Origin: Candidatus Microgenomatus sp.
Lineage (GTDB): Bacteria; Patescibacteriota; Microgenomatia; UBA8517
Length of the DNA: 64,000 bases
Assembly: GCA_020724555.1 (NCBI GenBank)
Contig: DYGT01000006.1
Coordinates: 1,649-65,648 of the forward strand
Direction: 5' to 3'
Of the stretch, positions 1-19,637 are shown one piece after another. The number at the start of each line of letters is the position of its first letter. Position 1 is the first letter of the stretch. Below the pieces are notes generated by a model. That model was not told the origin of the DNA. It was given only the letters and a program-made list of their open reading frames with translations, and ran no database searches. The position numbers and the translations under genes were made by a program.

Positions 1-1157
1 ACTAACGCATCCAAAACCCTTGCATTTACCCCTCCAATGTGGCAACGGCGTTGCTCTTTTGGAAAATGATGTAATCTCTCCTCGCAGCGATAGTAGTAAT
101 GTCCGTGCCTGTTACAGCCGTCTCCAGCCCTACGGTTGCCACATCCGCACCACAACACCTCTGAGAGTAGATAATCAAACTTTCTATTCTTCCTGGCGTA
201 TCTTCTGTTGTATTCCATTATCACTTGTGCTTTCTCGTATAAAGCTCTATCTTCCATAATTATCGGCACTTTGAAGGGATACCACTCGTCTTTGGTTCGT
301 AACTTGCGGCTGTTTTTCTTAACCTTACGATATTTGTCGTTCTTAATTCTGGTTTTAGACTCTACTGCTTCGTGCTTGTTGTAATAAGCAATGCCTGTCC
401 AATAGGTTTCGCAGCGAAGCATTCTGGTTACCGAACCCTTTGTCCAAAAGTCACTTCTTCTCTTTTTAGGCTTGATGCCAAGGTCATATAAACGCCTAAT
501 GATACCGTTTATTGATATTCTTTCGATAACAAACCACTCAAAAACCAGTTTTATTGTCCGTATTTCTTCTTCGTTTCTTTCCCAGTGCGTAGGCGTGGTA
601 TCGGTTCTCTTGACATAGTTATAGCCATACAAGGCACTCCCGCTTATCACTATGCCATTTTTGGCTTTGTAGAGTTTGCCTCTCCTGAACCGTTCGGCAA
701 TCTTCACTCTTTCGTAGTCATGAAAGCATGCCAATACATTTCTCATAAAACTCTGCTCACCATTTATTGGGTTGATATCGTGAAGTGAGATGAGCTTTAT
801 GCCAGCTTCTTCGAATTCTTTAACAAGGACGAGTTGATAAGTAACATCTCTCGATAAACGACCGAGATCATAAACATATAAAACTTGAATTTCCTGCCTC
901 TTTGTTGCGTCACGCAGAGTATCTAAGCCTGGTCGAGCCAGTATTGTGCCTGTCCAACCATCATCCAAAAAGATGTGTTTATCCGAAAGAATGTTGCCGT
1001 CAGCCTCAATTCGACTTTTAATCTCATCGGTTTGTGACTCTATCGTTTGCTCGTTCTCTTGTCTCCCTGTTGAAACCCTGGCATACAAGCCCGCAATCAA
1101 CGATTGCCTGGCTTGACCGTTCCCTGTATCATTTGTGTTAGGCAGTAAATCTTCCAT
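1..1157 (-). CDS. Large serine recombinase (integrase/resolvase family), C-terminal end outside the window
   Basis: Minus-strand ORF starting at the ATG complementary to 1155-1157 and running off the window start (no Met-to-stop ORF in the track because it is truncated). N-terminal resolvase-type catalytic motif YARVSTGRQ, internal recombinase domain, Cys-rich zinc-ribbon region CGCGNRRAGDGCNRHGHYYYRCEE typical of large serine recombinases. Confidence 0.85.
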   Translation of the reverse strand, partial: MEDLLPNTNDTGNGQARQSLIAGLYARVSTGRQENEQTIESQTDEIKSRIEADGNILSDKHIFLDDGWTGTILARPGLDTLRDATKRQEIQVLYVYDLGRLSRDVTYQLVLVKEFEEAGIKLISLHDINPINGEQSFMRNVLACFHDYERVKIAERFRRGKLYKAKNGIVISGSALYGYNYVKRTDTTPTHWERNEEEIRTIKLVFEWFVIERISINGIIRRLYDLGIKPKKRRSDFWTKGSVTRMLRCETYWTGIAYYNKHEAVESKTRIKNDKYRKVKKNSRKLRTKDEWYPFKVPIIMEDRALYEKAQVIMEYNRRYARKNRKFDYLLSEVLWCGCGNRRAGDGCNRHGHYYYRCEERLHHFPKEQRRCHIGGVNARVLDAL

Positions 1158-1217
1158 TGGTTTATTTGCTTATCAGGGGTCTTGGCTTCGCTAGCGAAAG
1201 ACCTCTGATTTTTTTAA

Positions 1218-1424
1218 TCAAGTTTTCGTCATAGTTTTTTCAAATAACGCTGCCAGTTTTGTATTGCTTATTCGCCAGGCTTTGCCCAACTTCACTGCTG
1301 GCAATTGCCCTCGTCTTGCCATACGATAAATGGTTATTTTGGCAAGTTTCAACTTCTCAGCTGCCTCATTTATGGTTAAGTATTCTTGGTTCTCCATATG
1401 GCTAATTGATGCTGTTTGATACAC
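1218..1424 (-). CDS. Excisionase-family/MerR-like helix-turn-helix DNA-binding protein (putative recombination directionality factor)
   Basis: 68 aa; LTINEAAEKLKLAKITIYRMARRGQLPAVKLGKAWRI matches the excisionase-type HTH (LTxxEAAxxLxVSxxTIYRLxxxGxLPAxKxGxxWRI); immediately next to the serine recombinase. Confidence 0.6.
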   Translation of the reverse strand: MYQTASISHMENQEYLTINEAAEKLKLAKITIYRMARRGQLPAVKLGKAWRISNTKLAALFEKTMTKT

Positions 1425-1591
1425 TCACACACTACCCAGAGGGTCTGTGTAAGTCAAGTGTGATCGCTAATGATCTTTTATCTACCTTTTGTCTGTCTAT
1501 AATGTTTTGCCTCGCCATCGTAAAAATACGGTCATAAACCAGCTTTAAACGCCCAGTGCTTTCTGGTTTGTCTGTATAAATAAAGCTGATG

Positions 1592-2197
1592 TTAGGCGGC
1601 ACTATTCTTCTCATTTTGTTTATCGTTAAATTCGATCTCCAACTCGGTGATCTTTTTACTCAACTCGATTTCTTCTGGAGTTAATGGTCTTTGTTGGCTT
1701 TCATCAATGTAGTTCTTTGAAACTTCGTATTTACCAACTGGTTCACCCCATTCAATTCTTGTCATCTCCCAAAGAATTCTGACCTCCTGAACCGAAGTTG
1801 GTTCACCCGCCTGCATTTGCTTTCTAAGCATTTGCAGTTTGCTCCAGAAAGCCTCTGTAATGAGGTAAGCCCTCTTTTGTCGTATCTGCGTGGTCTTCTT
1901 TTTCAGTCCCTCCAAATCTTCTGCTAATTTCTTGTCTGCCCGCTCCACCCACTGGTATTTAACCGACCAGCGCTCAATTGTCCTTTCCGAGGGTAAATCG
2001 CCGAGTTTAGAGCCAAAAATCACCGACAACTCTCCTGCTGAACTCCGACTTATTTGCTCCCATGCTTGAATTAGTTTGGAAACACTCCCAACTTCGCAAT
2101 ACAGCAAGAAAGCTGTATATTGCTTTTCGGTCTCCCCAGGCATTTTTGATGTTGTTGGTTTTTCAGGTTTTGTTGTTTGCATATAATTCTTCTCCAT
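1592..2197 (-). CDS. Hypothetical protein (mobile-element cargo, charged, possibly DNA-binding)
   Basis: 201-aa ORF in the recombinase/excisionase block; no motif recognised. Confidence 0.4.
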   Translation of the reverse strand: MEKNYMQTTKPEKPTTSKMPGETEKQYTAFLLYCEVGSVSKLIQAWEQISRSSAGELSVIFGSKLGDLPSERTIERWSVKYQWVERADKKLAEDLEGLKKKTTQIRQKRAYLITEAFWSKLQMLRKQMQAGEPTSVQEVRILWEMTRIEWGEPVGKYEVSKNYIDESQQRPLTPEEIELSKKITELEIEFNDKQNEKNSAA

Positions 2198-2849
2198 GCG
2201 GGCAAACGCCAGTTGATTCCCAAAGCGACTCGTCTATTTCCTGCATCGTTTTTATGTCTAAGTTATTTGCGTCTTTCTCTAACATCTCCCGATACTCTTC
2301 ATTACTCCTATGACCATTGCGAAGATTACATCCACACTTAAAGGAACTTAAAGGTTTATAATCGGCTCTTTGCATCTTTGCAACGGATTGAGGAGAATTG
2401 TCGTCATTCTCTTTAGAGACTTTCTGTTGCAAATCTGAATGAGGTTGTTGTGCTTCTGCAACGACGCCTTGCAAATCTGCAATATGTTCTTGCAGGTCAA
2501 CGATCTTTTTCTCTTTAACAATTTCAGTTAGCTTCTCCCGAATATCAAAATCAACCACATACACCCTCTTGCCTTGTTTTCTCCAAAAACCAAGCGAGTA
2601 GAGCTTGCCTGCGTTTCTGCTCACCTTAGAAGGACTCCAACCTATCAACCAACCGATTTCCCAAAGCGCATACTCAAAGCTTCCATATACTTCTCCATGA
2701 CTTTTATCCCAATCAGCAAGGCACGAGTAGCTCAAATCCCACAAGATATACTCCTGATCAGACAACAACTTCCTATGAAGAAGTAAAAACCTCCCTCTAA
2801 AATGACGGTCAAACCCACTTAATCTGTTCATAATCTTTGTTTGTTGCAT
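2163..2849 (-). CDS. Hypothetical protein (mobile-element cargo)
   Basis: 228-aa ORF, co-directional and overlapping the previous ORF by 35 nt; no recognised motif. Confidence 0.4.
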   Translation of the reverse strand: MQQTKIMNRLSGFDRHFRGRFLLLHRKLLSDQEYILWDLSYSCLADWDKSHGEVYGSFEYALWEIGWLIGWSPSKVSRNAGKLYSLGFWRKQGKRVYVVDFDIREKLTEIVKEKKIVDLQEHIADLQGVVAEAQQPHSDLQQKVSKENDDNSPQSVAKMQRADYKPLSSFKCGCNLRNGHRSNEEYREMLEKDANNLDIKTMQEIDESLWESTGVCPHGEELYANNKT

Positions 2850-2860
2850 ACTGATTCTTA

Positions 2861-3160
2861 TTAGACTTTTTCTGAATATAACCTCTCTTTCAGGCTTTTA
2901 ATGACTGTTACTGCCTTACGAAAGTCCACTAAAACCTCTGGAGAGTTTTCCTCCGCAAAATTGAAAGCCCTAAGAATTTCTTGTCGACTTGGGGAATCTT
3001 TCAGAACAAAAACTGATCTATTAGGATTTGAAGAAGGCTGGATTGATATAAGCTCCAAGCCTCGGAGCATCAAAAAAACTGCCGAGTAGAAGCTACTTGT
3101 GTAATACTGATTATCTTTTGATTTTTGACCAGACATAAATACGCCTTTCTCCAGCCACAA
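2861..3160 (-). CDS. Hypothetical protein
   Basis: 99-aa ORF, last gene of the leftward cargo block. Confidence 0.3.
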   Translation of the reverse strand: MWLEKGVFMSGQKSKDNQYYTSSFYSAVFLMLRGLELISIQPSSNPNRSVFVLKDSPSRQEILRAFNFAEENSPEVLVDFRKAVTVIKSLKERLYSEKV

Positions 3161-3486
3161 AAAAAGGACTGCATTACTACAGCTACACTGCCATTTCTTG
3201 CGTGTTGCTATCGTGCAGTCCGTCTATTGCGTTCGATTATGTCTGAAAACCTCTTGCAGGAAAAAAGAGGATTTGCCCTTGGCATTCCGAAGATCCTGCT
3301 GCATGCCCTTATTGCGAGTTGCTTTCGTGCGTTCTTGCTTTCCGAGTCCTATCGTTTGCGAATTTCAACTTAAGGCAGTTGTGCCTTAGTAGCTATATTT
3401 TTACAAAATTCCTATCTTCTTGTCAAGAGTTTCTTGATTAAAAATGTAGTAAGAAAGTCTCCAAATTGATACAATATAAGTATAAA

Positions 3487-3625
3487 GCCTAAACCCCTTC
3501 TGGGGCATGGCTAAGAAAACCCATCACAGGCGGTAAGCTCCTCGTCAGAGCACCTGTAATGGGTCATATCCCGAAAGGGGTATGGGTAGTCGAAAGGCTA
3601 TCGCTGGTGGGGAGCTTTTTGTTTG
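3487..3625 (+). ncRNA. Candidate structured ncRNA or cis-regulatory RNA of unknown family
   Basis: Non-coding, locally GC-richer segment in a divergent intergenic region. It contains an imperfect 11-bp stem (cccatcacagg / cctgtaatggg), two GNRA-type hairpins (cccgaaagggg, gtcgaaaggc) and a terminal G-run followed by a T-run (ggtggggagcttttt). Strand and family not determinable by eye. Confidence 0.2.
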
Positions 3626-3676
3626 GATTTGACAATCTCTCCCAAGCGAAGTTAACATAGCGAACCATATCAAAAT

Positions 3677-4345
3677 ATGACAATAAAGATGAAAAATAAG
3701 GTTAAAACTATCGTTCCTCTCCTGCTTGTTGTCCTATTGCTTTCACTTGGCGGTTTTTATTTGTTCAAATCATCCCATGATAAGTTTGCGCCTCCCCGCA
3801 AAGACGCTCCAATGGTGCAGTTTCGAGTAGACAAAAAAAATACCCTGATGGCAGTCACTGGTAATCTTCACTACTATGGCTTTGTTAAAGATGAAGAAGC
3901 CCTTGAATATGCCCTGGAACATACCAAAGACAATACTCCTGGTAAGCCTGGGGCAATTAAGATTGGCAATAACAGTATCGATACAGAGACTGCCTACGAT
4001 ATTTCTCAATCAATGACCGCCTGGGAAATAGCCAGAATTCTTCTTAATGAAGGCACACCCAGTATCAGAGACTGTGACCACGGTTGCGAGGAATATAACC
4101 CCTTTACTCCAGCGCTTCTGCCTGGAGGAGATATTGCTCCTACTTGGCAAGAGCGTATGCGGGCTAAATATAGCTGGGTAAAAAACTATGATGACTGTCT
4201 TAAAGCTATTGGTCATGATGGGGGTCAAGTAACTTCTGAGGAGGCTTCCAAGCGCACTGGTCACCCAAGAGTGTGTAATACAGCAGACGGTCGTTATTTT
4301 ATTCAAGGAAAAGAAGGCTGGAGTGATTATCCGCCTTACCCGTAA
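3677..4345 (+). CDS. Secreted/membrane-anchored hypothetical protein
   Basis: 222 aa, N-terminal hydrophobic signal/anchor (IVPLLLVVLLLSLGGFYLF), several Cys. Confidence 0.5.
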   Translation: MTIKMKNKVKTIVPLLLVVLLLSLGGFYLFKSSHDKFAPPRKDAPMVQFRVDKKNTLMAVTGNLHYYGFVKDEEALEYALEHTKDNTPGKPGAIKIGNNSIDTETAYDISQSMTAWEIARILLNEGTPSIRDCDHGCEEYNPFTPALLPGGDIAPTWQERMRAKYSWVKNYDDCLKAIGHDGGQVTSEEASKRTGHPRVCNTADGRYFIQGKEGWSDYPPYP

Positions 4346-4358
4346 AGGAGGTGAGAAT

Positions 4359-5069
4359 ATGAAGATAAAAATTGTCATTGCACTACTGGTTATCGCCGCT
4401 CTGGGAAGTGTTTTTGTTTGGTCAAGGCAAAGTAGCAAAACTGCTTTGTTGCCATCAAAACAAACAACTAATGTAACAACCCAGGAAGAGACGATTATCC
4501 ATAATTTCATGGCAGAACCTAACCTCAAGCTGTCTTTTATTAAGACTGATTTACCGTTTCCAAGTTACTTCAGTGTCGGTAAAGTAACTCAGGTAAATGG
4601 TGGTGAGAATATGGAGGCGGTAGAGGAGTGGACACGCCAGGTTAATGTTTATCGCCAAAAGGAATTACTTAATGGACAATGCTCGGTTTATGAGTATCAC
4701 ATTGATCCCAGAAGTCATTCCTTGGTAGCAGTTGTCGTTGCGGGGTTAAAGCCTAATGAAATTGAGGCATACAAGGTAAAGGGTATTGAGTGTAAGACCG
4801 AGGTTCACAACTTGCCAGAAATATCTAAGGCAGAGGCTGAAAGTGTTGCCATGGAATATCTAAAACGAGTCTTACCCAACTTTGACCAAATTAAAGACAG
4901 GCTTGTTTATTCTCACGGTAAAACGCACAGTTGGCTATGGGAAAACAAAGACTACCGCTTACCAGATGGTTTAGAAGGTCGACCATACTCATATCCCACT
5001 ATCCGCATATCAGTAGACAACAACAAAAACATTCAGTATTGGAATACTGTGTCGTTGTTTGAGAAGTAA
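4359..5069 (+). CDS. Secreted/membrane-anchored hypothetical protein
   Basis: Start placed at the Met after a strong SD (aaggaggtgagaat-ATG); N-terminal TM/signal (IVIALLVIAALGSVFVW). Confidence 0.5.
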   Translation: MKIKIVIALLVIAALGSVFVWSRQSSKTALLPSKQTTNVTTQEETIIHNFMAEPNLKLSFIKTDLPFPSYFSVGKVTQVNGGENMEAVEEWTRQVNVYRQKELLNGQCSVYEYHIDPRSHSLVAVVVAGLKPNEIEAYKVKGIECKTEVHNLPEISKAEAESVAMEYLKRVLPNFDQIKDRLVYSHGKTHSWLWENKDYRLPDGLEGRPYSYPTIRISVDNNKNIQYWNTVSLFEK

Positions 5070-5169
5070 GGTCTGTTAGAAGTTCCTCTCGGTCTTTTTA
5101 GAAACTAAACAGAGGTGAAACTTTTATCCACCCCAAGCACGAAAGCCCCATACAAGTCAACACACGGCG

Positions 5170-6177
5170 TCACCTTGAGTAAAATTCCCTAACTGAAGCA
5201 GCTAAAACTCTTACATCTTGGTTGTCTAATCTGAAAAACGGTTTACCCAGTACACTTTCTGGAATACCCATTTTTCTAATAACATCCAGCGCCTGCGCTT
5301 GTGAGACTATCGTTCCACCCCTACTCCTGTCATGTTTGCTAAGAGTCGAAACATCTCTTGAGCCATTGTATTCGCCAAGCATTTGTCTAAGTTCTCTTTT
5401 GACATTTGACCTATCTCGTCTATGTGATTCTCGTTTAGATAAATCACCGCCTCCACCTCTCTGGCTGGCATCAACAAGTGCCTGTTTCATCTCATTCACA
5501 ACCAAACCAAATCTGCCTGTTCTTCTAAACAAATATGCAAATATATAGTCAGCGGGGTTGGCTTCGATTTCCCTCCTGTCCTTAGGGTCAAACTCCATCA
5601 CAATAGCATCTGTTCTCGGCTGCGGGTAAAAAGCTTCTCTGGACACTTGTGCTAAAACTCTTGAGTCAAAAAAAGTCTGACCCAGCAACGACAACTTCCC
5701 AAAGCCCATACTAGCCTCCGATTCCTGAAACTCTCTGGCGACATTATCTCCCAACATCAAGACAGCGCTGCTTATAGGTAAATCTATCAGCTTATACATA
5801 AAAGGTTCAGTAATATGGAAAGGTAAGTTTGCGACAATTTGAGCCTCCTCATCTCTACCAATCAAAGAACCAAACTGCACCCTCAAGGCGTCGCCAAATA
5901 TAAATCTGATTCTTGGGTTTTTTTCTTGAATACCCTCTAAAATAGGTTGAAATCTCTTGTCAATTTCTATCCCAATGACCGAACCAGCTCGTTGAGCAAG
6001 GGCTTCAGTTACATGTCCTATTCCAGAACCAACCTCAATGACTTTTGACCCTTCTATCACTGTAGCAACAAGCCTACCGATCACCCTTTCGTCAATCAAA
6101 AAATGCTGACCCAACCGTTCGCTAAGATCGATTCCTTCTGCCTCTAGTTGCGATGTAATAATTCTCTCTCTATTCAT
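5170..6177 (-). CDS. rRNA adenine N6,N6-dimethyltransferase family protein (KsgA/RsmA/Erm-type), paralogue 1, with an Arg/Ser-rich insertion
   Basis: GQHFLID SAM-binding motif, VIEVGSGIGHVTEAL, NLPFHITEP (motif IV NLPY-like), C-terminal helical domain ending MGIPESVLGKPFFRLDNQDVRVLAASV that resembles the KsgA C-terminus. ~50-aa low-complexity insert (RGGGGDLSKRESHRRDRS...). Confidence 0.8.
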   Translation of the reverse strand: MNRERIITSQLEAEGIDLSERLGQHFLIDERVIGRLVATVIEGSKVIEVGSGIGHVTEALAQRAGSVIGIEIDKRFQPILEGIQEKNPRIRFIFGDALRVQFGSLIGRDEEAQIVANLPFHITEPFMYKLIDLPISSAVLMLGDNVAREFQESEASMGFGKLSLLGQTFFDSRVLAQVSREAFYPQPRTDAIVMEFDPKDRREIEANPADYIFAYLFRRTGRFGLVVNEMKQALVDASQRGGGGDLSKRESHRRDRSNVKRELRQMLGEYNGSRDVSTLSKHDRSRGGTIVSQAQALDVIRKMGIPESVLGKPFFRLDNQDVRVLAASVREFYSR

Positions 6178-6198
6178 AAGTTGCGTATTTTAACATTC

Positions 6199-6897
6199 CT
6201 AAGAGACGGGTTCAATTGTGCCTGTTTTAAGCATAAATTGTATAACCTGAGTAGTTGTGTTCCTAAAGTCTCCTGTATTGTCAACACAAAATAGCCTGTT
6301 TTTAGAAACTTGTCTACTTTGTCGAATAATTTCATCTTGCAAAAGAAGTAGTTTGTCAGTTGAGTATCTTTCATTCAACTCTACATTATCCCCCCCAAAC
6401 ATTTTTCTTCTGTTACTTTCTAGCTGTTGCGCATTAGAAGTTACAATTATTAACCTATTATTACCACTTAGATATGGTGCTACTATTGATGGTATTAATT
6501 GGACTCCTTCAAACAATACATTTTGTGCTCCTTGAACTTCTAATTTAGGAATAATGTTGCGCAAAGGTGAACAAACTATTTTAGAATAACCATTGAATCC
6601 TGCAATTAGGCTTTGTGGAGAATAGGAACCATCTCCAATGGCAATATAGCTGTCACAAGAGCCATAGTTAACAAACGGGCTTCGCTCGGCTTCTGGTTTA
6701 TGGCTTTCTATTTCCTGGACTACAAGTCTAATAATGTCCATCGATTGTAAAGTGCAATTTTCAATTAATGAGGTAATAAGCGGAGCAATAGTAGACTTTC
6801 CCGATAGCGGGACTCCAGTAATAAAAACTAGAGTTCCCTGTCTGGTAAATCTGTATTCTGGACTTCGAGCTAATTCTGGATGGTTTAATTTTTCCAT
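6199..6897 (-). CDS. P-loop NTPase/kinase, substrate unknown
   Basis: Walker A VFITGVPLSGKSTIA near the N-terminus; 232 aa; start abuts the stop of the upstream SHMT-like gene. Confidence 0.55.
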   Translation of the reverse strand: MEKLNHPELARSPEYRFTRQGTLVFITGVPLSGKSTIAPLITSLIENCTLQSMDIIRLVVQEIESHKPEAERSPFVNYGSCDSYIAIGDGSYSPQSLIAGFNGYSKIVCSPLRNIIPKLEVQGAQNVLFEGVQLIPSIVAPYLSGNNRLIIVTSNAQQLESNRRKMFGGDNVELNERYSTDKLLLLQDEIIRQSRQVSKNRLFCVDNTGDFRNTTTQVIQFMLKTGTIEPVS

Positions 6898-8154
6898 TTA
6901 TTCATACCAAACATCATTCTTTCTTTTAATTTTTAGTAGTTTTTTCAAATTATTTTTCGATTCTGTCTGGAGAGAGGTATCGGTCGGATCTGCTAGGTTT
7001 TGCAGAATTATGTCAGCAATAATCCCCACATCTTCTTCAGAATAACCTCTAGCAGTAATCCAAGAAGTTCCCAATCTGATTCCACTGGCTACATACGGCT
7101 TTAATGTCTCCCCAGGAACAACTTGTCTATTTGTAAGAATTCCAAGACTTTCTAATAGCTCCTCAGCTTCCTTACCCGTTAAGCCGAATACTCGGTAAGT
7201 GTTTAAAACCATTAAGTGTGTATCGCTTCCTCCAGTAACAACCAAATCAGGATATTGATTAAACTTTTGCTCGAAAATCTTAATATTTCTGATTACTCGG
7301 TCAATATAGTCATTAAACCAAGGCGAGCCGCAATCAATGAGACACTGGGTCATTTGATAAATTCTTCTTAGCGGCACACTCGATTGGACTCCTGGATGGA
7401 TAGCTTTATCTATTTTTTGGCTTAAATCGTTTTTACATAGCAATATCCCGCCATGTGGACCAAGCATAGTTTTATCTAAAGTTAAGGTAACTACATCACA
7501 GTGGGGAAATGGTTGTGGAAACCTTCCTGCTACAATTAAACCTGCTGGATGAGATAAATCTGCCATTAGATATGCCCCAACTTTTTTTGAAATTTCTGCC
7601 AATCTCTTAAACTCAATTATTCGAGGATATGAAGATGCGCCACAAACAATTAGTTTTGGTTTAAATTCCAATGCTTTTCTTTCTACTTCCTCGTAATCAA
7701 GCCAGCCGTTCTCATCAACGCCATAAAAGTCAAAATTATAAAAGATACCCGAGAAGTTCCTGCTCATGCCGTGGGTTAAATGTCCACCAGCGTCAAATCT
7801 CATAGCTAGCGCTCTATCACCATAATTAAGAAGTGCTTGATATACTGCCTGATTAGCTTGACTCACAGAATGTGGTTGGACATTAGCGTGTTCCGCTCCA
7901 AACAATTTACATGCAGCTTCAGCAGCTATCCTTTCAATACGGTTAAACCCCTCTACACCAGCATAAGGTCTATTTTCAAGTAACCCCTCAGCTATTGCAT
8001 TGTGCTTCAGGGGTAGATTATAAAAATACTTCATAGGAGTAGGACTTGCGGGGGCTATTAGGTTGATGGTATTCAAGTCATATTGATCTTGCTGTTTAGC
8101 AGCTTCGACTAACTCCTGTCCCAGCTTTTGAAAATATTCGCTTACTCGCCTCAT
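6898..8154 (-). CDS. Serine hydroxymethyltransferase-like PLP-dependent enzyme (divergent second SHMT-family copy; possible transaldolase)
   Basis: 418 aa; SHMT fold-type I signatures GGHLTHG and TLDKTMLGPHGG (PLP-lysine motif; canonical glyA in this window has TTHKTLRGPRAA). Clearly more divergent than the glyA at 48453-49769. Confidence 0.75.
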   Translation of the reverse strand: MRRVSEYFQKLGQELVEAAKQQDQYDLNTINLIAPASPTPMKYFYNLPLKHNAIAEGLLENRPYAGVEGFNRIERIAAEAACKLFGAEHANVQPHSVSQANQAVYQALLNYGDRALAMRFDAGGHLTHGMSRNFSGIFYNFDFYGVDENGWLDYEEVERKALEFKPKLIVCGASSYPRIIEFKRLAEISKKVGAYLMADLSHPAGLIVAGRFPQPFPHCDVVTLTLDKTMLGPHGGILLCKNDLSQKIDKAIHPGVQSSVPLRRIYQMTQCLIDCGSPWFNDYIDRVIRNIKIFEQKFNQYPDLVVTGGSDTHLMVLNTYRVFGLTGKEAEELLESLGILTNRQVVPGETLKPYVASGIRLGTSWITARGYSEEDVGIIADIILQNLADPTDTSLQTESKNNLKKLLKIKRKNDVWYE

Positions 8155-8155
8155 A

Positions 8156-9304
8156 TTATTTAAATTTTTGATAAACTTTTAAGATTGACTCGGCGAAATC
8201 GATAATCTCATTTTGACTCAATCCAGGGTGCACATAAAGATTAAAAACTCTTTTTGAAATTTCGACGGCTACGGGGGTTAACGCAACATTACCGATACCA
8301 ATTTTTCGACATATTTGAGTTTCGGGGAGAGTTAATGGGTATTGGCGCTTAATAGGAACTCCTTGTTTCAATACCTCTCTGACAAACTGGTCCCTTTTAT
8401 TAGTAAGCCTTTTTGGTAAAATCCCAGTCAGATAACAATAAACATTGTACGTGTCATCGGCTTCCTTTTGGAAAGTAAGATCTGTATTTGCTAATATCTC
8501 TTTGTAAAGCATGGCATATTTTCTTCTAACCTTGTTTAGGTTATCCAGTCTTTCTAACTGCCTCAGACCTAATGCCGCCTGTATTTCTGTCATCTGATAG
8601 TTAAATCCTATGTGATCAAAATCGTAATCATCCACATTCGGATGTTTAATGCCATTGTTTAATATTGAACGAAGAGTATTAGCGTATGATTGAGAGTTAG
8701 TTGTTATCATTCCACCCTCACCACACACGAGATTTTTTGTTTGATAGAAACTAAAACAGCTAATGTCACCGAAAGAGCCGACAAACCTATCTTTGTATTT
8801 AGCGCCTACAGCTTGTGCGCAATCTTCTATTAGGATTAAATTATTTTCTTTGGCTATCTTGACTAGTTCATCCATTCTTGCAGGTTGACCATAAAGGTGC
8901 ACAACAATCAAGGCTTTTGTTCGTTTGGTGATCTTTTTTAAAACATCCTTGGGATCTAAATTAAAATCATCCTCACAAATGTCTACGAAAACTGGGGTAG
9001 CACCTTCTTGAATTACCACAGAAGCATCCGCCATAAAAGTAAGAGATGGAACCAATATTTCATCTCCTTTTTTCAAATTTAATGCAGCCATGGTCGCATG
9101 CAGAGAGGATGTGCCTGAAGAAGTGGCAAATGAAAATCTCCTTCCGAGCAATCTTGACATTCTGTGTTGAAACAACTTAACATAAGGTCCTCCTTCAGGC
9201 TTAGAAAGGAACCCAGACTTTAAAACTTTCACTACATTGTCTATACCTTTCTTGTCGACATTTTGTTTGTTCATTTTCTTTAATAAAGTCGTTATCTTGT
9301 TCAT
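8156..9304 (-). CDS. DegT/DnrJ/EryC1/StrS-family PLP-dependent (sugar) aminotransferase
   Basis: 382 aa; family-typical layout including SFYQTKNLVCGEGGMITTN (PLP-Lys region) and CAQAVGAKYKDRFVGSFGDISCFSF. Confidence 0.85.
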   Translation of the reverse strand: MNKITTLLKKMNKQNVDKKGIDNVVKVLKSGFLSKPEGGPYVKLFQHRMSRLLGRRFSFATSSGTSSLHATMAALNLKKGDEILVPSLTFMADASVVIQEGATPVFVDICEDDFNLDPKDVLKKITKRTKALIVVHLYGQPARMDELVKIAKENNLILIEDCAQAVGAKYKDRFVGSFGDISCFSFYQTKNLVCGEGGMITTNSQSYANTLRSILNNGIKHPNVDDYDFDHIGFNYQMTEIQAALGLRQLERLDNLNKVRRKYAMLYKEILANTDLTFQKEADDTYNVYCYLTGILPKRLTNKRDQFVREVLKQGVPIKRQYPLTLPETQICRKIGIGNVALTPVAVEISKRVFNLYVHPGLSQNEIIDFAESILKVYQKFK

Positions 9305-9306
9305 GC

Positions 9307-10407
9307 TTAACTTACTCCTAGACCTCCAATTAATTGTTTAAGGCTATCTTCCATGTCATATATGGTGCTAATTTTCCCCGCTAAGATGCTCATGTAATAT
9401 GGGTTTTGGGAATGAATGGTGATAAGAGTTGGTCTTGAATCGTCTTTCTCGGAGGACATTAAAATAGGTTTTACTTCGAAGATTGAGTTTAGATATTCAA
9501 AGTCGATATTCTTTTTGAGATAACTCCTAGCGAGAGATTCCGCCCTTTTATCATCTGGTTTAGCTCTTATACCATTAATGTTCTGCGGTTTTGTGTAGGA
9601 AGTATTTAGTGGAGTAAAACTTACTGATGACAAAGAATAGATACTACCATCACCAAACGGCATTAGAGAGAAAAATGGACCATCCATCACGGTTAGCCCA
9701 ATTCCTGAAAATCCATTATTCATCTTGCATATTTTAAGTTCACAAAGCTCATATTTAATATCATAACCATTAAACCCAAACATTTTATTGATCTCGTTAA
9801 CATTACTGTATGTTGCGTTCACAATAAGCGGTGCTTCGAGAAGAGAAGCGTCTTTTAATGTTAAAACATACTTGGAATCTGAAACTTTTTGAGCGGTGGG
9901 GAAGTTTTGGTAATAAATGTCAATATTTTTATTGTTTGAGAGTTGGTTTAGAAAGTATTCCTTAAGTTTTGCGTAATCAAAACATGCCTCTTCTGCTTCA
10001 AAAACAACATCTACTCTATCTTCCTGGAAAAATAGTGACCTACTAACTTCTTTTAATGGAATTCCAACTTTTCTACAAAATCTAATATATTCTTCTGGTG
10101 ATGTCTTAGAATTTTCTTTCGAAATTGCATAATATTGTTTAAAAGGTTTTAGTATAGCGAAGCTAAAGTCGTTGCAAAAACGGTTGTAATAATTTGCTGT
10201 TTTTCGTGCGGTTTCTAAGCTTCTCGGATAGTGATATCCCCTGTGAACCCTTGCTTGATTGATCTTACTTGCTCTCTCAAAAATTTCTTTTTCTTTTTCC
10301 AATACCGCCACTTTTAAGCCTTTGGACGATAGCACCTGTGCGGCATAAAGACCAAAAATTCCCCCGCCAATAATAATCGCATTATATTTTCTAATTTTTT
10401 TACTCAT
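9307..10407 (-). CDS. FAD/NAD(P)-binding oxidoreductase
   Basis: N-terminal Rossmann dinucleotide-binding motif YNAIIIGGGIFGLYAAQVLSSKGLKVAVLEKE; 366 aa. Confidence 0.7.
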   Translation of the reverse strand: MSKKIRKYNAIIIGGGIFGLYAAQVLSSKGLKVAVLEKEKEIFERASKINQARVHRGYHYPRSLETARKTANYYNRFCNDFSFAILKPFKQYYAISKENSKTSPEEYIRFCRKVGIPLKEVSRSLFFQEDRVDVVFEAEEACFDYAKLKEYFLNQLSNNKNIDIYYQNFPTAQKVSDSKYVLTLKDASLLEAPLIVNATYSNVNEINKMFGFNGYDIKYELCELKICKMNNGFSGIGLTVMDGPFFSLMPFGDGSIYSLSSVSFTPLNTSYTKPQNINGIRAKPDDKRAESLARSYLKKNIDFEYLNSIFEVKPILMSSEKDDSRPTLITIHSQNPYYMSILAGKISTIYDMEDSLKQLIGGLGVS

Positions 10408-11399
10408 GATTCTTTAGATTTAAATGGTATTTGAATTCCTTCTGGATTTATCTGAACATAATCTCTATATTCTTTGATATTTTTTAACTCTTTGATTGTC
10501 TCTCTGAGGAGCTTGATATAAGGTCTATAAATAATCCTTTCTACTTCTGGAGAGATAGGGTAATCGTTGTGCCTGTCGCCAGTGATAATATATCGGTAAT
10601 TTTTCAAATTCATTCTAAAACTGTGGTAGTGATAATAGACTAACGGATAGCTGTCATTCAGCAAAATTTGATCATTTTTCTTGGTGATATCATATTTCTG
10701 AATATTCCACGGGGCAGCATTTGTCCCAACATTAACAAGTTCTCTCACTTTTTTAAATCGTGTTCTCCAATCGTCCAAATACTTCTGCTCTCCAAACTTA
10801 CCATCTTCAAATTTTGATGAACACCATTCCATCGTTCTTTTATGCCACCAATCCAGAATTTTTTTGCTATTTCTGTTTTTCCTAAAACACTGAAAAGAGG
10901 TGCAATAATAGCCAACTCTAACAAAGTCATTTACAAATTGGAAAGAAAAATTGTTTGGCTGGATCAACACATCGGCATTGCCAAGCTCCTTGAAGATTAC
11001 TTCAGGAGATTGAAAAAACATTAAGTCGCAATCACAAGAAGAGATAAAATCCGTGTCCTGCTCTAATAAAACCTTCCTAGTTATAAAAGGGTTGCAAGCC
11101 CAATAGTATTCATATCTTTTTACTTTCGAAGCCTTAACCTTCAGCAATTCCTTATTTTCGAACTCTGTTGGATGATAAATTTTGATATTTTTGTAGTTCA
11201 GCTTCCTAAAAATATTGTAAGCTATATCGTCAAAGCAAAACATGTGTAAGAGAAAGTTTTTATGAACTTTTGACAGAGATTTGTATAAAACAATCGCTTT
11301 ATGCAAATAATTAGCGTCGGTGCTAGTTGCGATATGCCTAACTGATGATGTCCTGACGGATTTATTATTTTGCATAATTAATCGGATCAACAGACCCAT
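10404..11399 (-). CDS. Putative nucleotide-sugar (glycosyl)transferase-like protein
   Basis: 331 aa soluble protein with a DxD-like acidic cluster (SSCDCDLMFF) and overall resemblance to small capsule/LPS-type transferases; weak assignment. Confidence 0.4.
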   Translation of the reverse strand: MGLLIRLIMQNNKSVRTSSVRHIATSTDANYLHKAIVLYKSLSKVHKNFLLHMFCFDDIAYNIFRKLNYKNIKIYHPTEFENKELLKVKASKVKRYEYYWACNPFITRKVLLEQDTDFISSCDCDLMFFQSPEVIFKELGNADVLIQPNNFSFQFVNDFVRVGYYCTSFQCFRKNRNSKKILDWWHKRTMEWCSSKFEDGKFGEQKYLDDWRTRFKKVRELVNVGTNAAPWNIQKYDITKKNDQILLNDSYPLVYYHYHSFRMNLKNYRYIITGDRHNDYPISPEVERIIYRPYIKLLRETIKELKNIKEYRDYVQINPEGIQIPFKSKES

Positions 11400-12048
11400 T
11401 CCTTTGGAATGCCTCTAATCTTGATTTACAATTACTACACCTACCACAGGCAATATCAGAATTGTTATGGCATGACCAAGTCAACTCGAAGGGCACTCCA
11501 AGCTCAAGACCCAACCTGACTGCACCGATCTTGTCAGTTTGAATTAAGGGGGCAACTATCTGAATTGACGGCTTTATAAGAGTTCCCTCCTCAATTAAAC
11601 GCTGCATTGCCTCGACAAATTTTGGACTGTTATCTGGGCAGATATGGTCTCCGCCAGTTGAACCTATACAAACGGCCCCAGCCCTTAAATACTCTGCATA
11701 AGCAATAGCCTGGCTCTCCAAAATAGCGTTTCTGTTGGGAACATATTCATTAACAGCAGTTGTCAGCGTTTCACTCTGAGTTAATGAGACTCCTGGTAGA
11801 GATTTAAGAAGTGGAACTTCAACAACCTTTAAACTTGCACCAAAGTGTTTAGAAAGTGCCTGGGCACACCCCAATTCCTTCTCATAAGTTTTTTGTCCCC
11901 AATCGAAAAATATAAAATGCAACTTAAAACCAGCTCTAGCCATTAGGGCGGCTGCTACAGCGCTATCCAAACCACCACTTACGGTGCATACAGCACTTCT
12001 GCGATCGATTGACTCAAGTCTTTTTTGAATTTCAATTTCTTTTCCCAT
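11365..12048 (-). CDS. queC: 7-cyano-7-deazaguanine synthase QueC
   Basis: PP-loop SGGLDSAVAA, C-terminal zinc motif CGRCSNCKSRLEAF; start chosen at MGKEIEIQ (ATG 12046-12048), directly after the queE stop. Confidence 0.9.
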   Translation of the reverse strand: MGKEIEIQKRLESIDRRSAVCTVSGGLDSAVAAALMARAGFKLHFIFFDWGQKTYEKELGCAQALSKHFGASLKVVEVPLLKSLPGVSLTQSETLTTAVNEYVPNRNAILESQAIAYAEYLRAGAVCIGSTGGDHICPDNSPKFVEAMQRLIEEGTLIKPSIQIVAPLIQTDKIGAVRLGLELGVPFELTWSCHNNSDIACGRCSNCKSRLEAFQRNGSVDPINYAK

Positions 12049-12049
12049 A

Positions 12050-12832
12050 TTAAGTTCTTCTTTTAGGACCAAACCATATAAGCTGATTTCTAAGTGTGAT
12101 TCTCCAACCCCTAACTTCAACTACTTCTCTAATTACACCCAAGTGTGCCTCTACCTCTTCCTTTGTATGTCCCTCAGGCATCAATAAGATTTTTCCATTG
12201 TCTAAATTACATTCCTCAATAATCTTGTCGATTTCATCTAAATCAGAAGGTCTTGTAACCACGAATTTAAATTGCGATTTGGGCAATCCATTTATTACTC
12301 TCAAAACTTCTGGTTTATATCTTCTCTGTAGAGTATTTCCACTATTCTCGAGCTTTGGGGAACAATTAAATTGACAAGTATGCAACTCTGGAATAGGCAT
12401 AACTGTCCCATTTGTTTCTATTTCCACTTTCCACCCTAGCAGTTTTTGCAGAAGCCTGGCAATCTTCTTTTGCTGCAACAATGGTTCGCCTCCAGTTACA
12501 ACCAGCCTTCGCTCTTTTGATGGGGAGAAAGTTGACTCCCAAGCATTACTAATCTTGATGGCAGCTTCATTGTAAGACCAATCTTCTGGTTCTTGCCAAA
12601 ACTCCCGCTTGCTAGTATCCCAAGTATATCCAGTATCACATAACCATCCGTTTGGAACACCGCATGTTAAATTACAGTAGTGAAGGCGCAAAAAGACAGA
12701 AGGTAGACCTGCAGTAATACCCTCTCCCTGAAAAGTCGTAAAAACTCCATCACCACTAACCTTTAATTTATCGGGCTGAGGTTTTATTCTCTCTCGATCC
12801 TCTGGTGTCGGTTTATATATTTCTCGAGTCAT
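12050..12832 (-). CDS. queE: 7-carboxy-7-deazaguanine synthase QueE (radical SAM)
   Basis: Radical-SAM cysteine cluster CNLTCGVPNGWLCDTGYTWD in a QueE-length protein; 4-nt overlap with queD. Confidence 0.85.
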   Translation of the reverse strand: MTREIYKPTPEDRERIKPQPDKLKVSGDGVFTTFQGEGITAGLPSVFLRLHYCNLTCGVPNGWLCDTGYTWDTSKREFWQEPEDWSYNEAAIKISNAWESTFSPSKERRLVVTGGEPLLQQKKIARLLQKLLGWKVEIETNGTVMPIPELHTCQFNCSPKLENSGNTLQRRYKPEVLRVINGLPKSQFKFVVTRPSDLDEIDKIIEECNLDNGKILLMPEGHTKEEVEAHLGVIREVVEVRGWRITLRNQLIWFGPKRRT

Positions 12833-13299
12833 AATCTTTTTTCCAATTTTTCAATATCCTTCCGTGTGCAGATAGCCGCACTTGTAGGTGTTTCCCACAA
12901 CTTGATAGAGTAAAGTCTCAAACCCGTTTTGTATTTATCTTTTATGTGACCATCAAGCTGTTTAAATATCCAGGCGGCAATATTTTCAGAAGTAGGCACA
13001 AATGGAACAATAATATATTTCTGTTCGGCATTTTCCTTGAAGAATTTTACAAGAACCTCGTCTTTATTCCACACCATAAACCCATGATCTAACACATTAT
13101 GAACCCGTTCTGTCGCAATTTTCTTGATATCGCCAAAATCTATCACCATCCCTTCATTAGAAACGCCCTCTATATTTACAAGATCGCCCTCAACACATAT
13201 CTCGGCTTTATATCTGTGACCATGCAAATTTCTACACTGCGAGTGGTGATTAGTTACCCGATGCCCCATATCCCACTGGATTTCCTTTATAACTTTCAT
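12829..13299 (-). CDS. queD: 6-carboxy-5,6,7,8-tetrahydropterin synthase QueD (PTPS family)
   Basis: 156 aa, CRNLHGHRYKAEICVEGD zinc/catalytic motif of the PTPS/QueD family. Confidence 0.85.
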   Translation of the reverse strand: MKVIKEIQWDMGHRVTNHHSQCRNLHGHRYKAEICVEGDLVNIEGVSNEGMVIDFGDIKKIATERVHNVLDHGFMVWNKDEVLVKFFKENAEQKYIIVPFVPTSENIAAWIFKQLDGHIKDKYKTGLRLYSIKLWETPTSAAICTRKDIEKLEKRL

Positions 13300-13300
13300 A

Positions 13301-13885
13301 TCATTTGCTTTGTTGGCTGTTTATTTCTCTATAAAATTGATCTATTAATTTAGTGTTCTTTTTTAGTAACCCTCTAAATATCGTTGTTTTCGTAATACAA
13401 TCTCTTTTTCTTACACCTCTCATACTCATACAAAGGTGTTCTGCTTCAATTGTGACGATTAATCCTCTCGGATTTAAATTTTCCTCTAAAGCATTGGCTA
13501 TTTGGTTAGTGAGATTTTCTTGCGTTTGAAATCGGTGGCTCAAAATTTCCGTCAATCGGACAAACTTAGAGAGTCCAAGCACTTTCCCGTTGGGAATATA
13601 ACCAATATGGATTTTCCCAAAAAACGGGAGCATATGGTGTTCACAGAGACTATGAAACCCTATATTCGTTAGGGTTACTAAATCTTTGTAACCGTTGCTT
13701 TTAAATGTTTTGAAGACTGTCTTTGGATCTTGAGAGTACCCACTAAGCAACTCTTCATACATCCTGAAAACTCTTATGGGTGTTTCTGCTAAACCATCTC
13801 TGGATATATCTTCACCGAAACTATTCAACAACTGGAGGATAAAATTGGTGACTAATTCTTTTCGAGAACCACTCTTATTTGTCAT
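13301..13885 (-). CDS. folE: GTP cyclohydrolase I FolE
   Basis: HSLCEHHMLPFFGKIHIGYIPNGKVLGLSKFVRLTEILSHRFQ is the conserved GCH-I core (CEHH ... VLGLSK). Confidence 0.9.
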   Translation of the reverse strand: MTNKSGSRKELVTNFILQLLNSFGEDISRDGLAETPIRVFRMYEELLSGYSQDPKTVFKTFKSNGYKDLVTLTNIGFHSLCEHHMLPFFGKIHIGYIPNGKVLGLSKFVRLTEILSHRFQTQENLTNQIANALEENLNPRGLIVTIEAEHLCMSMRGVRKRDCITKTTIFRGLLKKNTKLIDQFYREINSQQSK

Positions 13886-14001
13886 ATGTTGGGTTTTAAC
13901 CTTGCACGACGGCCTACACTTTGATGTTGTGCAGCACGCCCAACTACCGTTGCAATAACTGAATTATACTACAATAAGACGGTATTTGCAAAAATTACGA
14001 A

Positions 14002-14967
14002 TTACCTGAGAGCTCTTGAAAGTGCTTTTAAGTTTTCATTACTCAGTTGTTGAAAGGGTTTGTCCAGAACATCATTAGGAATATCCATTTCTGAAATAAT
14101 AGCCCTTGCTTGATTTTGGGTTAGTGTTTCACCCGAAAGTCGTGCAAGTTCAATTAGTCCTTCTTTTAAGGAATTCTTTGTCAATGGGCTGTATCTTGAT
14201 GTTACAAACAATCTTTTTAACAGATAATCCCGCTTGCTCAAGTTCATCCCCTCTCTTGTTTTGGGCGTTAATCTTATGATTGCTGAGTCAGTTCTTGGAA
14301 CTGGAAAGAATTTCTTTTTTTCTATTGTTCTGATTACTTGAGGATTAAAAAATGTCTGAGTTAATAAAGTTAGTTGACCAAATGAAGGATCAGTTTCGCT
14401 GCCTACCTCCATTGCATGCATAAACCTCTTACCGACGACAAGGGTAGCATCATGCATTGGAAACTCCGTAATTTTATGTAAAAATGGTTCAGTAATATGG
14501 TAGGGTAGACTAGCAATGATCTGCGTTCGCCCCTTGCGTTTCCCAACCAATGCAGACATCTCTAAAGCAAGAATATCGCCGTAAACTATTCGAACATTTG
14601 GATTGGCTCTTTCAATTTGTGTCAAAATTGGGCTATAGCGCTCGTCTATCTCTACAGAGACAACTTCATTAGCTCTTTTTGCGAGTGCTTCCGTTAATTG
14701 CCCAACTCCAGCTCCAATCTCAATAACTGTTGCTCTCGATACAACAGAATCCGCAAGTGTATTAATTGCATCCTCATCCACCAAAAAATGTTGTCCCAGA
14801 TTTTCGTTGGGTCTAATTCCCAATCTATTAAGCCTGTCAATAATAAGTTTTTTTAAGTCGTCTTCTCTCGAATAAAGTCTTTCCATACTTTTGATTTTAT
14901 TTTGTATTTTACCCATAATTATAAGGTATTTTACCAAGAAACTAGTTACAGAATCCATAAGATACAA
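14002..14967 (-). CDS. rRNA adenine N6,N6-dimethyltransferase family protein (KsgA/RsmA/Erm-type), paralogue 2
   Basis: GQHFLVD, VIEIGAGVGQLTEAL, SLPYHITEP, C-terminal DIPNDVLDKPFQQLSNENLKALSRAL (KsgA-like C-terminus). The true start may be an internal Met (MERLYSRED at about 14886). Confidence 0.8.
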   Translation of the reverse strand: MYLMDSVTSFLVKYLIIMGKIQNKIKSMERLYSREDDLKKLIIDRLNRLGIRPNENLGQHFLVDEDAINTLADSVVSRATVIEIGAGVGQLTEALAKRANEVVSVEIDERYSPILTQIERANPNVRIVYGDILALEMSALVGKRKGRTQIIASLPYHITEPFLHKITEFPMHDATLVVGKRFMHAMEVGSETDPSFGQLTLLTQTFFNPQVIRTIEKKKFFPVPRTDSAIIRLTPKTREGMNLSKRDYLLKRLFVTSRYSPLTKNSLKEGLIELARLSGETLTQNQARAIISEMDIPNDVLDKPFQQLSNENLKALSRALR

Positions 14968-15338
14968 AGTTACCCCTCGTAAAAGCCAGATGAGAAGGCT
15001 TAGAAAGTTCAGCCTGCTACATCCAACAGTTGTTGTGTATTATACTGTAGGGTAATTTCTGGAAATTCCAGGATGTCTAACCAGTTTGCTCGCCTAAAAT
15101 CGTTCCATTTATCCAGCCAAATAGGACGAGAGGGTCGTAAAGACCTCTTTTGGGCTGATTTATCGGGCATTTTTGCAGGTTCGAAAATCTTTTCTCCAAA
15201 TTATCCCGAATTGGTCCCTTTCGACCCGTTAGCCTCAACCACTGCATTGTGTATGAGTTTGAAGACCAAATAAGGGGTAGTTTTTCTGTTTTAAGTAAGC
15301 AACATCTAATTTTAATTTTTGCTAAAGATTGGTCATAT

Positions 15339-15529
15339 TTATTTTTTGTTCCTCAGTATTGTTTCAATGTCTTTGGGATCGTAACGCCTGTCGCCTCGCT
15401 TATTAACTCTAATAGCCTTTAATTTCCCGCTTTTACCCCACCTGCGCAAAGTCTCTAATGCACATTCAGAACTTCTGCTGCCTGTTTTATGGTTAAAAGT
15501 TTTGGTAATTCACTTTTGGTCTTCGGCAT
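15339..15529 (-). pseudogene. Excisionase-family HTH gene interrupted by a frameshift
   Basis: Minus-strand reading gives MPKTKSELPKLLTIKQAAEVLNVH then a stop. The +1 frame continues LETLRRWGKSGKLKAIRVNKRGDRRYDPKDIETILRNKK, which together form an excisionase-type HTH (LTIKQAAExLxVSxxTLRRWxKxGKLKAIR). Not in the ORF track because each piece is under 60 aa. Confidence 0.45.
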
Positions 15530-19613: not shown

Positions 19614-19637
19614 AATTTGTCCTGATGTCCCGATGAG

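Follow-up and report, generated by a model that had tools for sequence, protein, structure and literature searches.

The 64,000-nucleotide window analysed here, the reverse complement of part of a longer parent contig (L001; JGI 3300029893 Ga0246236_1000130), begins within the gene for a large serine recombinase (LSR), the remainder of which lies just outside it and ends within ychF, a housekeeping gene that codes for a GTPase. We consider it probable (about 0.8) that the window from position 1 to approximately 5188, together with a further 0.5 kb beyond its start, is the core of an integrative element in an uncultured Patescibacteria host of the Microgenomates type, inserted by its LSR at the 5' end of ychF, and that wider cargo extends to at least 16.1 kb. 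The recombinase module is the core of a mobile island and belongs to a family that always inserts at the start of ychF, as represented by a sample of 13 distinct loci whose LSRs are 35-90% identical to that of the window. These include a locus in the complete genome CP055308.1 (L073; the region of that genome used for comparing the island is L168). By the relatives of its YchF, the host of L001 is placed in Patescibacteria, with genomes of the Woesebacteria and Levybacteria types. Little is known about mobile elements in Patescibacteria, a group of ultra-small, uncultured bacteria, and this family provides one that is widespread and has a precise, conserved target; the core also encodes a homologue of the terminase small subunit (TerS) and an RNA of the LOOT family.

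The recombinase and its target in ychF

The complete LSR on L001 is 558 aa long and matches phrog_95 integrases over residues 15-524 (3.4e-77). The translation within the window contains LYARVSTGRQ, with the YARVST motif of the serine nucleophile, and has a Resolvase domain (PF00239, 1.8e-26) followed by a Recombinase domain (PF07508, 1.7e-12); the zinc ribbon (Zn_ribbon_recom, PF13408) scores 18.4 bits against a cut-off of 25.3 in the truncated copy and is still marked as weak in the full-length protein. A resolvase catalytic domain with the recombinase and zinc-ribbon domains in that order, in a protein within the 450-700 aa size range, is the arrangement of an LSR. A gene for a small helix-turn-helix (HTH) protein of the HTH_17 family lies directly upstream, as it also does in L006, L010, L049, L073-75, L079, L082, L164 and L167, and from its family and position its product is likely to be a directionality factor or regulator. 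A preliminary description of this DNA had recognised the truncated LSR with its YARVST motif and zinc ribbon and the excisionase-type HTH gene at 1218-1424, and had read the two as the recombination module of an integrated mobile element; all of this stands, with the zinc ribbon the weakest part. Its advice to look upstream of the window for the rest of the recombinase and for its target is borne out by the 558-aa protein, although that target is ychF and not a tRNA gene.

On L001 the recombinase gene (11041-12717) overlaps ychF (12674-13783), such that the TAA stop codon of the LSR sits 44 nt into an intact, full-length ychF (TIGR00092, 1.7e-119) that is off the window. The stop is made by the Gly-Lys codons of the YchF Walker A motif, read in the other frame (GG[T AA]G); ychF of L074 has GGA AAA at these codons, and its LSR extends to 563 aa. 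Overlaps of 32-59 nt are present in L006/L049, L010, L012/L101, L073, L074, L079, L081, L082, L102, L165 and L167. All of the LSR homologues that are 75-90% identical to that of the window, and three others at ~50% identity that were picked solely because their contigs were long, are encoded immediately upstream of ychF. The reverse survey, starting from ychF loci, finds an LSR gene, complete or cut by the end of the contig, in L004, L006/L049, L010, L012/L101, L096 and L102, and remnants directly upstream of ychF in L002 (7636-8038) and L007 (1435-1845), where only the last ~140 codons are kept. At ~75 further ychF loci from Patescibacteria, each with 1.7 kb or more of upstream sequence, no LSR is present, nor is there one at any of the non-Patescibacteria ychF loci in the survey; the distribution is thus patchy, with an LSR at roughly one in ten ychF loci.

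The manner of insertion is seen most directly in two relatives that are 99-100% identical downstream, L102, which is occupied, and L104, which has an empty site; at the level of the family these supply both kinds of site and the junctions between element and host. In L102 an additional ychF 5' end, comprising the native promoter, start codon (ATG) and 25 codons (MNLSVGIVGLPSVGKSTLFNALLKK), is located 7.8 kb upstream of the real gene, and this displaced fragment matches the host-type sequence of L104 up to GAAGAAA and is element sequence thereafter. The LSR-adjacent ychF of L102 is correspondingly only 68% identical to that of L104 over nt 1-60, but 90-100% identical beyond. Together, the displaced fragment and the shift in identity place the crossover at approximately nt 70-78 of ychF. 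The LSR stop codons throughout the family, at 32-59 nt, all precede a crossover at ~nt 75, which is consistent with a common architecture.

We therefore propose a mechanism of 5'-end replacement for the family, which the L102/L104 pair shows in part. The LSR would recombine a site on the element with a host site located ~75 nt inside ychF, immediately after the stretch coding for Walker A and TLFNALLKK. The element would bring its own first ~25 codons of ychF, which the LSR gene overlaps with its 3' end, so that ychF is rebuilt in frame and is then expressed from element-borne signals, and the host's own ychF promoter and 5' fragment would be pushed to the far end. The persistence of recombinase 3'-end remnants in L002 and L007 fits with a dependence of ychF on signals within that end of the gene, and a scan of the recombinase 3' end for an internal ychF promoter gave no plus-strand site. 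A crossover at ychF codons 1-5, suggested by a drop in identity among L001, L073 and L074, was dropped in favour of the position of ~nt 75 given by L102 and L104; the identity-drop test is uninformative because the 5' coding region of ychF is itself conserved. Searches for direct and inverted repeats around the recombinase and on the far side returned chance-level matches only, and a comparison at nine loci for a far-side half-site that is an inverted repeat of the ychF-side half-site gave noise (18-20 matches of 34).

Empty ychF sites are present in L003, L005, L067 and L071, as well as in L104, and at these an extended -10 box (TGGTAAAAT) is located 6-8 nt ahead of the ychF ATG. The closeness of the box to the ATG in L067 (6700-6735) and L071 (4820-4853) suggests that the mRNA of ychF has little or no leader. 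A conserved sequence, GATATAAT, spotted by eye only, occurs ~100 nt ahead of the ychF start codon. Sequence upstream of ychF is apparently a hotspot of variation, L104 and L102 being wholly different there, and the two also differ within ychF by a divergent patch with indels at nt 241-420.

Extent of the core and of the accessory DNA

The conserved core is ~5.7 kb long, from the off-window end of the LSR gene (0.5 kb) to about position 5188 (Table 1). The core DNA of the window and L073 is 90% identical from the LSR gene through 5074 and one of its products, a 228-aa protein, is 100% identical between the two, whereas their YchF proteins share only 64% identity. The copies of the element are thus far closer to each other than their hosts are, and this applies also to 13 proteins encoded across the wider island (85-100% identity).

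A leftward operon runs from the DUF5659 gene to the recombinase and is faced by a promoter-like site. The preliminary description had noted three co-directional ORFs (open reading frames) of unknown kind beyond the HTH gene; those found are at 1432-1614, 1592-2197, 2163-2849 and 2861-3160, and they are indeed co-directional, but two of them, coding for the TerS homologue and the DUF5659 protein, are not unknowns. DUF5659 domains are encoded at the equivalent position in L073, L079, L164, L165 and L167, and weakly in L049. The 60-aa ORF resembles the N terminus (45-60 residues) of a 180-aa protein encoded behind the terminase large subunit (TerL) gene in sister elements and, judged by this similarity, is an N-terminal stub of it. 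The family of the 228-aa protein, which is found in these elements, is rare (16 clusters in a set of 5.8 billion proteins), and the protein has no matches in Pfam, PHROG or NCBIfam. Its AlphaFold model is poor overall (predicted local distance difference test score, pLDDT, 55.6), with a better-modelled core that resembles a winged helix; the best Foldseek matches are the winged-helix domains of CRP/FNR and plasmid Rep proteins, none of them significant. Because the structure models are of low confidence (pLDDT 55.6 and 48.0) these fold matches are not counted as evidence, and sequence searches of the PDB with the 228-aa protein and with the TerS profile gave no matches. The 228-aa protein is possibly a regulator or a replication initiator. 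Rightwards of the control region are two cargo genes coding for proteins with hydrophobic N-terminal anchors (that of the 222-aa protein was read from the translation); the 222-aa protein matches no family in Pfam, PHROG or NCBIfam, and the 248-aa protein none in Pfam or PHROG.

Table 1. Features of the core element and of the accessory DNA in the window.
Feature	Position	Strand	Basis or remark
Large serine recombinase, N-terminal 385 aa	1-1157	-	YARVST, Pfam; gene runs past the window start
HTH_17 / excisionase-family DNA-binding protein	1218-1424	-	PF12728 5e-14; TIGR01764 'excise' 4.3e-13; excisionase PHROGs
60-aa ORF	1432-1614	-	tblastn 53% over 45 aa with L164 (1.5e-12); also L165, L082
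TerS homologue, 201 aa	1592-2197	-	phrog_6299 3.8e-14
228-aa protein, winged-helix core	2163-2849	-	AlphaFold residues 31-100 helix-helix-helix-beta-hairpin, pLDDT 75-85
DUF5659 protein, first gene of leftward operon	2861-3160	-	PF18903 7.7e-10
Promoter-like site (TTGACA-18-AAAAAT with TG) facing the DUF5659-to-recombinase operon	3397-3426	-	Predicted; consensus scan only
LOOT RNA RF03000 (3486-3602) and conserved 3' tail GCTGGTGGGGAGCTTTTTGTT	3486-3623	+	Rfam 81.9 bits, gathering score 46.4
222-aa protein, hydrophobic N-terminal anchor, element cargo	3677-4345	+	88% identical in L073
248-aa protein (236 aa from ATG 4359), hydrophobic N-terminal anchor, element cargo	4323-5069	+	94% identical in L073
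Conserved terminal segment, ~100 nt, closing the core	5073-5188		Present in L001, L073, L074, L165, L164
Cargo/accessory part of island, mosaic-shared with CP055308.1	5128-16135	-	blastn 87-89%, tblastn 85-97% with L168
RrnaAD-like methyltransferase 1, o232, SHMT copy 1	5128-8154		87-89% DNA identity to CP055308.1
DegT, DAO, o279	8156-11243		Window-specific
QueC, QueE-like, QueD, FolE and leader	11408-13958		87-89% DNA identity to CP055308.1
RrnaAD-like methyltransferase 2	14002-14967		Window-specific
Frameshifted HTH_17 (intact in CP055308.1), shared block	15275-15512		87-89% DNA identity to CP055308.1
Frameshifted HTH gene	15339-15529		Repaired translation: HTH_17 7.6e-13, MerR_1
Non-coding segment	15966-16135		78% DNA identity to CP055308.1

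The core is closed by a conserved terminal segment whose minus strand has two predicted hairpins, one of them terminator-like (5134-5112), and bulk GC content steps down at this point. Five different genes abut the segment in different loci, with their ORFs reading into it and stopping (16 nt inside in the window). It is conceivable that cargo accumulates either by insertion into this slot or by tandem integration, the latter because the rebuilt 5' end of ychF still resembles the original host site.

Homology to CP055308.1 continues well past the core. An initial reading of the island as ending at 5.2 kb was overturned by similarity that reaches 16.1 kb, with 87-90% DNA identity between the first 16.1 kb of the window and the region upstream of ychF in CP055308.1; within it the shared blocks are interleaved with lineage-specific insertions, and there is one translocation. 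A methyltransferase gene at 5170-6177, for example, has a 90%-identical copy in CP055308.1. In that genome 27.8 kb from FolE to the LSR fills the interval between AdoMet_dc and ychF, and in L002 the gene order is BpsA, AdoMet_dc, gltX, LSR remnant, ychF. Host markers are much more divergent than the shared DNA: CP055308.1 and L002 are 63-75% identical, the window and L002 78-79%, and the window and CP055308.1 64% in YchF. As the island DNA is 87-90% alike while host markers are 63-79% identical, the accessory DNA linked to the core reaches at least 16.1 kb, and we suggest that the DNA outside the core, at least to that point, would be cargo and accreted accessory DNA that travelled with this core lineage.

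A narrower reading is that only the 5.7-kb core is mobile and that 5.2-16 kb is ordinary, though variable, DNA of the host, or a separate accessory region beside the insertion hotspot. It would account for the wholly different neighbours of the core in L074, L164, L165 and L167, for the conserved host genes only ~3 kb past the core in L074 and L165, and for the fall in bulk GC where the core ends (41.8% to 37.9%). Nonetheless, the core and the preQ0, SHMT and RrnaAD genes are equally 88-90% identical between the window and CP055308.1 in hosts whose markers are at 63-79%, and the AdoMet_dc-to-ychF gap filled by 27.8 kb in CP055308.1 is nearly empty in L002. We therefore regard mobility of the core alone as rather doubtful, and favour an LSR element at ychF whose accessory DNA extends to at least 16.1 kb.

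Several observations weigh against this interpretation. A displaced ychF start was sought by pattern and by tblastn in the window, L073, L074, L164 and L165 and is in none of them, being found in L102 only, and an attL or far-end recombination site is likewise not detectable in the window or in these four closest sister loci. A simple attL also fails to explain how five different genes come to read into the core end. The crossover for the lineage of the window is extrapolated from L102, to whose LSR its own is only 35-41% identical, and the divergence of the hosts is judged from few markers (YchF, Fic, BpsA and AdoMet_dc). No excised or circular copy of the element was found, and in the IMG/VR viral contigs neither a relative of the LSR nor the LOOT pattern was found, although that collection need not contain satellites. 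In scans of metagenomes and genomes with YchF, the highest identities were 79% and, for a partial match, 86%, so that no near-identical host whose site is empty came to light.

The terminase homologue and the LOOT RNA

The TerS homologue has a 42%-identical relative on a viral contig (L163), where it is encoded directly upstream of TerL (phrog_675, 1.4e-88) and a portal gene. Two sister elements, L164 and L165, have the gene order DUF5659, 228-aa protein, TerS, complete TerL, 180-aa protein, HTH_17 and LSR, and their TerL is full-length and 55% identical to that of the L163 phage; capsid, portal and tail genes are absent from both. Scanning of all ORFs of the window core against Pfam and PHROG matched no TerL, capsid, portal or tail family. 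The window core thus combines an integrase and a TerS homologue with a lack of capsid, portal and tail genes, as expected of a satellite. Because the window element has TerS without TerL or structural genes and its sisters have TerS and TerL, a phage-satellite lifestyle is the likeliest, in which the core would divert the packaging machinery of a helper phage.

The core might instead be a self-replicating, integrative plasmid-like element with a winged-helix initiator, its TerS-like protein acting as a DNA-binding regulator. Other lineages of the family do have DnaD/O-like or plasmid-type proteins in the winged-helix slot (phrog_2514 in L010; PF27228 in L079), and the absence of the element from IMG/VR would be in keeping with this. 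The resemblance of the TerS homologue to a TerL-paired phage TerS (42%) and of the full-length sister TerL to that of the same phage (55%) argues otherwise, and we hold a plasmid-like lifestyle to be possible but at well under even odds. If the satellite interpretation is right, these terminase-bearing mini-elements may be the first satellites of phages infecting Patescibacteria. A fuller version, in which they are the first recognised phage satellites of the Candidate Phyla Radiation, docking at ychF by a serine recombinase, with a TerS of their own and LOOT as an immunity or regulatory RNA, is a speculation to which we give little credence; if true, LOOT would resemble the CI RNA of satellite P4 in its action, and the helper phage would be parasitised through the element's own small terminase.

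LOOT is said to be an orphan structured RNA that came out of the comparative genomics of Weinberg and colleagues in 2017. It is not mentioned in the main text of PMC5737381, and our literature searches on the context of LOOT gave nothing. The window copy is a full-length match to the Rfam model (positions 1-121), well over the gathering score, and lies in the divergent control region, oriented toward the two anchor-protein genes. Copies with compensatory substitutions are present in L073, L074, L079, L165 and L167, each just upstream of outward-facing genes, giving a total of six distinct LSR-ychF elements with LOOT when the window is included; our own covariance model, built on five copies, detected no others across ~1.95 Mb of additional loci. 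To what is known from Rfam the six elements add a genomic home, in the control regions of elements of the recombinase-ychF family, together with a conserved, terminator-like 3' tail beyond the limits of the Rfam model. The RNA thereby gains a testable role.

From its position, LOOT is probably a regulatory RNA of the element, and a role in immunity or regulation is our hypothesis. In L164 a gene for a cI-type HTH_3 repressor (7152-7424) fills the position that LOOT holds in L165 (6122-6232). The idea that LOOT and a protein repressor are mutually exclusive is true for these two elements, but L049 and L010 have neither and it was rejected. The 3' tail, GCTGG(C/T)GGGGAGCTTTTTGTT, is able to base-pair with AAGCTCCTCGTCAG, an invariant stretch of LOOT; a run of T residues and a TTGACA box come after the tail. 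Within 3603-3660, the tail can form a long-range helix of 12-14 bp with the invariant core of LOOT hairpin 2; this helix, which competes with the fold given by Rfam, may serve as a terminator or switch.

Related elements, composition and minor features

Several LSR-encoding prophages and islands insert into genes, including SPbeta in spsM, skin in sigK, A118 in comK, Bxb1 in groEL1, and the Ccr recombinases of SCCmec at rlmH. The family described here shares with them the order of domains, site-specific insertion into a conserved gene, the absence of long direct repeats and a small DNA-binding gene beside the recombinase. It differs in its target, the first ~75 nt of ychF, with a replacement 5' end that overlaps the 3' end of the recombinase gene, in its Patescibacteria hosts, and in its very small core (5.7 kb). 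Insertion of LSRs into genes and the use of ychF as an LSR site are already known; what is new is a Patescibacteria-wide LSR-ychF family with an apparent 5'-end replacement overlapping the LSR gene, terminase-bearing minimal cores and a link to LOOT. Recombinases with a natural, conserved target in ychF could also be of interest to genome engineers.

Satellites of the SaPI/PICI kind (Staphylococcus aureus pathogenicity islands and phage-inducible chromosomal islands) are small and carry an integrase, an excisionase-type gene and their own TerS homologue, without capsid or tail genes. The window core is alike in its integrase and excisionase-type gene, its regulatory and possibly replication genes, its TerS and its small extent, and a cargo of morons or defence genes is a further common feature. 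It differs in having a serine and not a tyrosine recombinase, in lacking a recognisable primase or replication module, and in that its sisters carry both TerS and TerL without capsid genes; its helper phage and its induction are putative. Literature searches found no paper on phage satellites of Patescibacteria or on this recombinase family.

Two reports concern ychF itself. LSR-encoding pipolins integrate at ychF (bioRxiv 10.1101/2024.05.22.595293), and a defective pneumococcal prophage has an int gene just upstream of ychF, for which control of ychF expression was suggested (PMC8637289). The likeness to both is in the ychF site and in the integrase gene abutting it; the window element is without a piPolB gene, and phylum and cargo differ.

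The preliminary description had gone further and proposed that the recombinase may mark one end of an acquired island of ~20 kb or more, with a markedly AT-rich composition up to ~20.9 kb. The accessory content that it listed for 5-21 kb is present (preQ0 and sugar genes, cysS fragments, an ATP-grasp gene, NUDIX and hydrolase), and a position of the recombinase at one end of acquired DNA agrees with the CP055308.1 homology to 16.1 kb, but the boundary at 20.9 kb fails. Bulk GC is 41.8% in 1-5100, the richest part, 37.9% in 5.1-20.9 kb, 37.8% in 20.9-34.65 kb and 40.4% in 34.65-64 kb, with steps at ~5.1 kb and, mildly, at ~34.6 kb and none at 20.9 kb. A single island bounded by composition is therefore improbable: a lower third-position GC in 5.1-20.9 kb (mean 0.315 versus 0.347, p = 0.04, and 0.368, p = 4e-4, rightward), together with pseudogenes (the cysS fragments and the frameshifted HTH gene) and duplicated functions (SHMT, RrnaAD), speaks for it, whereas the bulk GC is equal across 20.9 kb, the recombinase module is the GC-richest part and homology to CP055308.1 stops at 16.1 kb. 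No tRNA gene is located near 20.9 kb, the sole one in the window being a tRNA-Thr at 63895, and neither a direct repeat or tRNA fragment, as had been suggested, nor a ychF fragment or other meaningful repeat was found there. The proposed second excisionase-like gene at 15339-15529 is indeed a frameshifted HTH_17 gene, with an intact orthologue in CP055308.1; that orthologue adjoins a peptidase gene and a ResIII/TnsA-like gene, with no recombinase beside it.

That the recombinase beside ychF is a domesticated, immobile host feature such as a switch for ychF expression is very improbable, for although the remnants in L002 and L007 and the pneumococcal proposal lend it some colour, LSRs occur at only about one in ten ychF loci, near-identical copies reside in hosts with 64% YchF identity, and the window copy is intact with its full set of accessory genes.

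Further to the right, L002 shares Fic (24.7 kb) with the window and L005 shares genes from 34.7 kb on, both being rearranged relatives. The segment 34693-43044 is collinear with L005 1-7938 (including a 109-aa protein, cysS, recR, dnaX and ybeY), which in L005 is directly upstream of ychF, and the whole 0-34.6 kb stretch may be variable relative to the L005 arrangement. Three decayed cysS fragments at 16168-17539 are 33-39% identical to the L005 cysS, to which the intact window cysS (37453-38883) is 59% identical; in L005, an empty site, cysS is 1.6 kb upstream of ychF, and the fragments could be debris of a donor flank.

The region 5170-14967 joins the preQ0 pathway (FolE, QueD, a QueE-like protein and QueC) to a second SHMT copy, a DegT aminotransferase and an FAD oxidoreductase, and the identity between its two RrnaAD-like methyltransferases is only 34%. 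Among these genes no transglycosylase of the TGT/DpdA type was recognised. The same slot in sister loci holds defence genes (AAA_15/Mrr/DUF4238, DUF4365, type III restriction-modification and DUF3800/methyltransferase), and the region upstream of ychF emerges as a hotspot that gathers defence and nucleotide-modification cargo. Upstream of FolE there is a 70-nt leader (13886-13958, minus strand) conserved with CP055308.1 (TTATTGCAACGGTAGTTGGGCGTGCTGCACAACAT...GGTTAAAACCCAAC), which has no Rfam match and could be a riboswitch-like element of the preQ0 operon. Finally, a 40-nt motif (TTGATATACTTCATTCATG...) is present at 16118-16157 and at 19580-19619 with 92% identity between the two, and also in L002 at 4271-4295, just before the start of BpsA; it is probably a shared promoter or leader.

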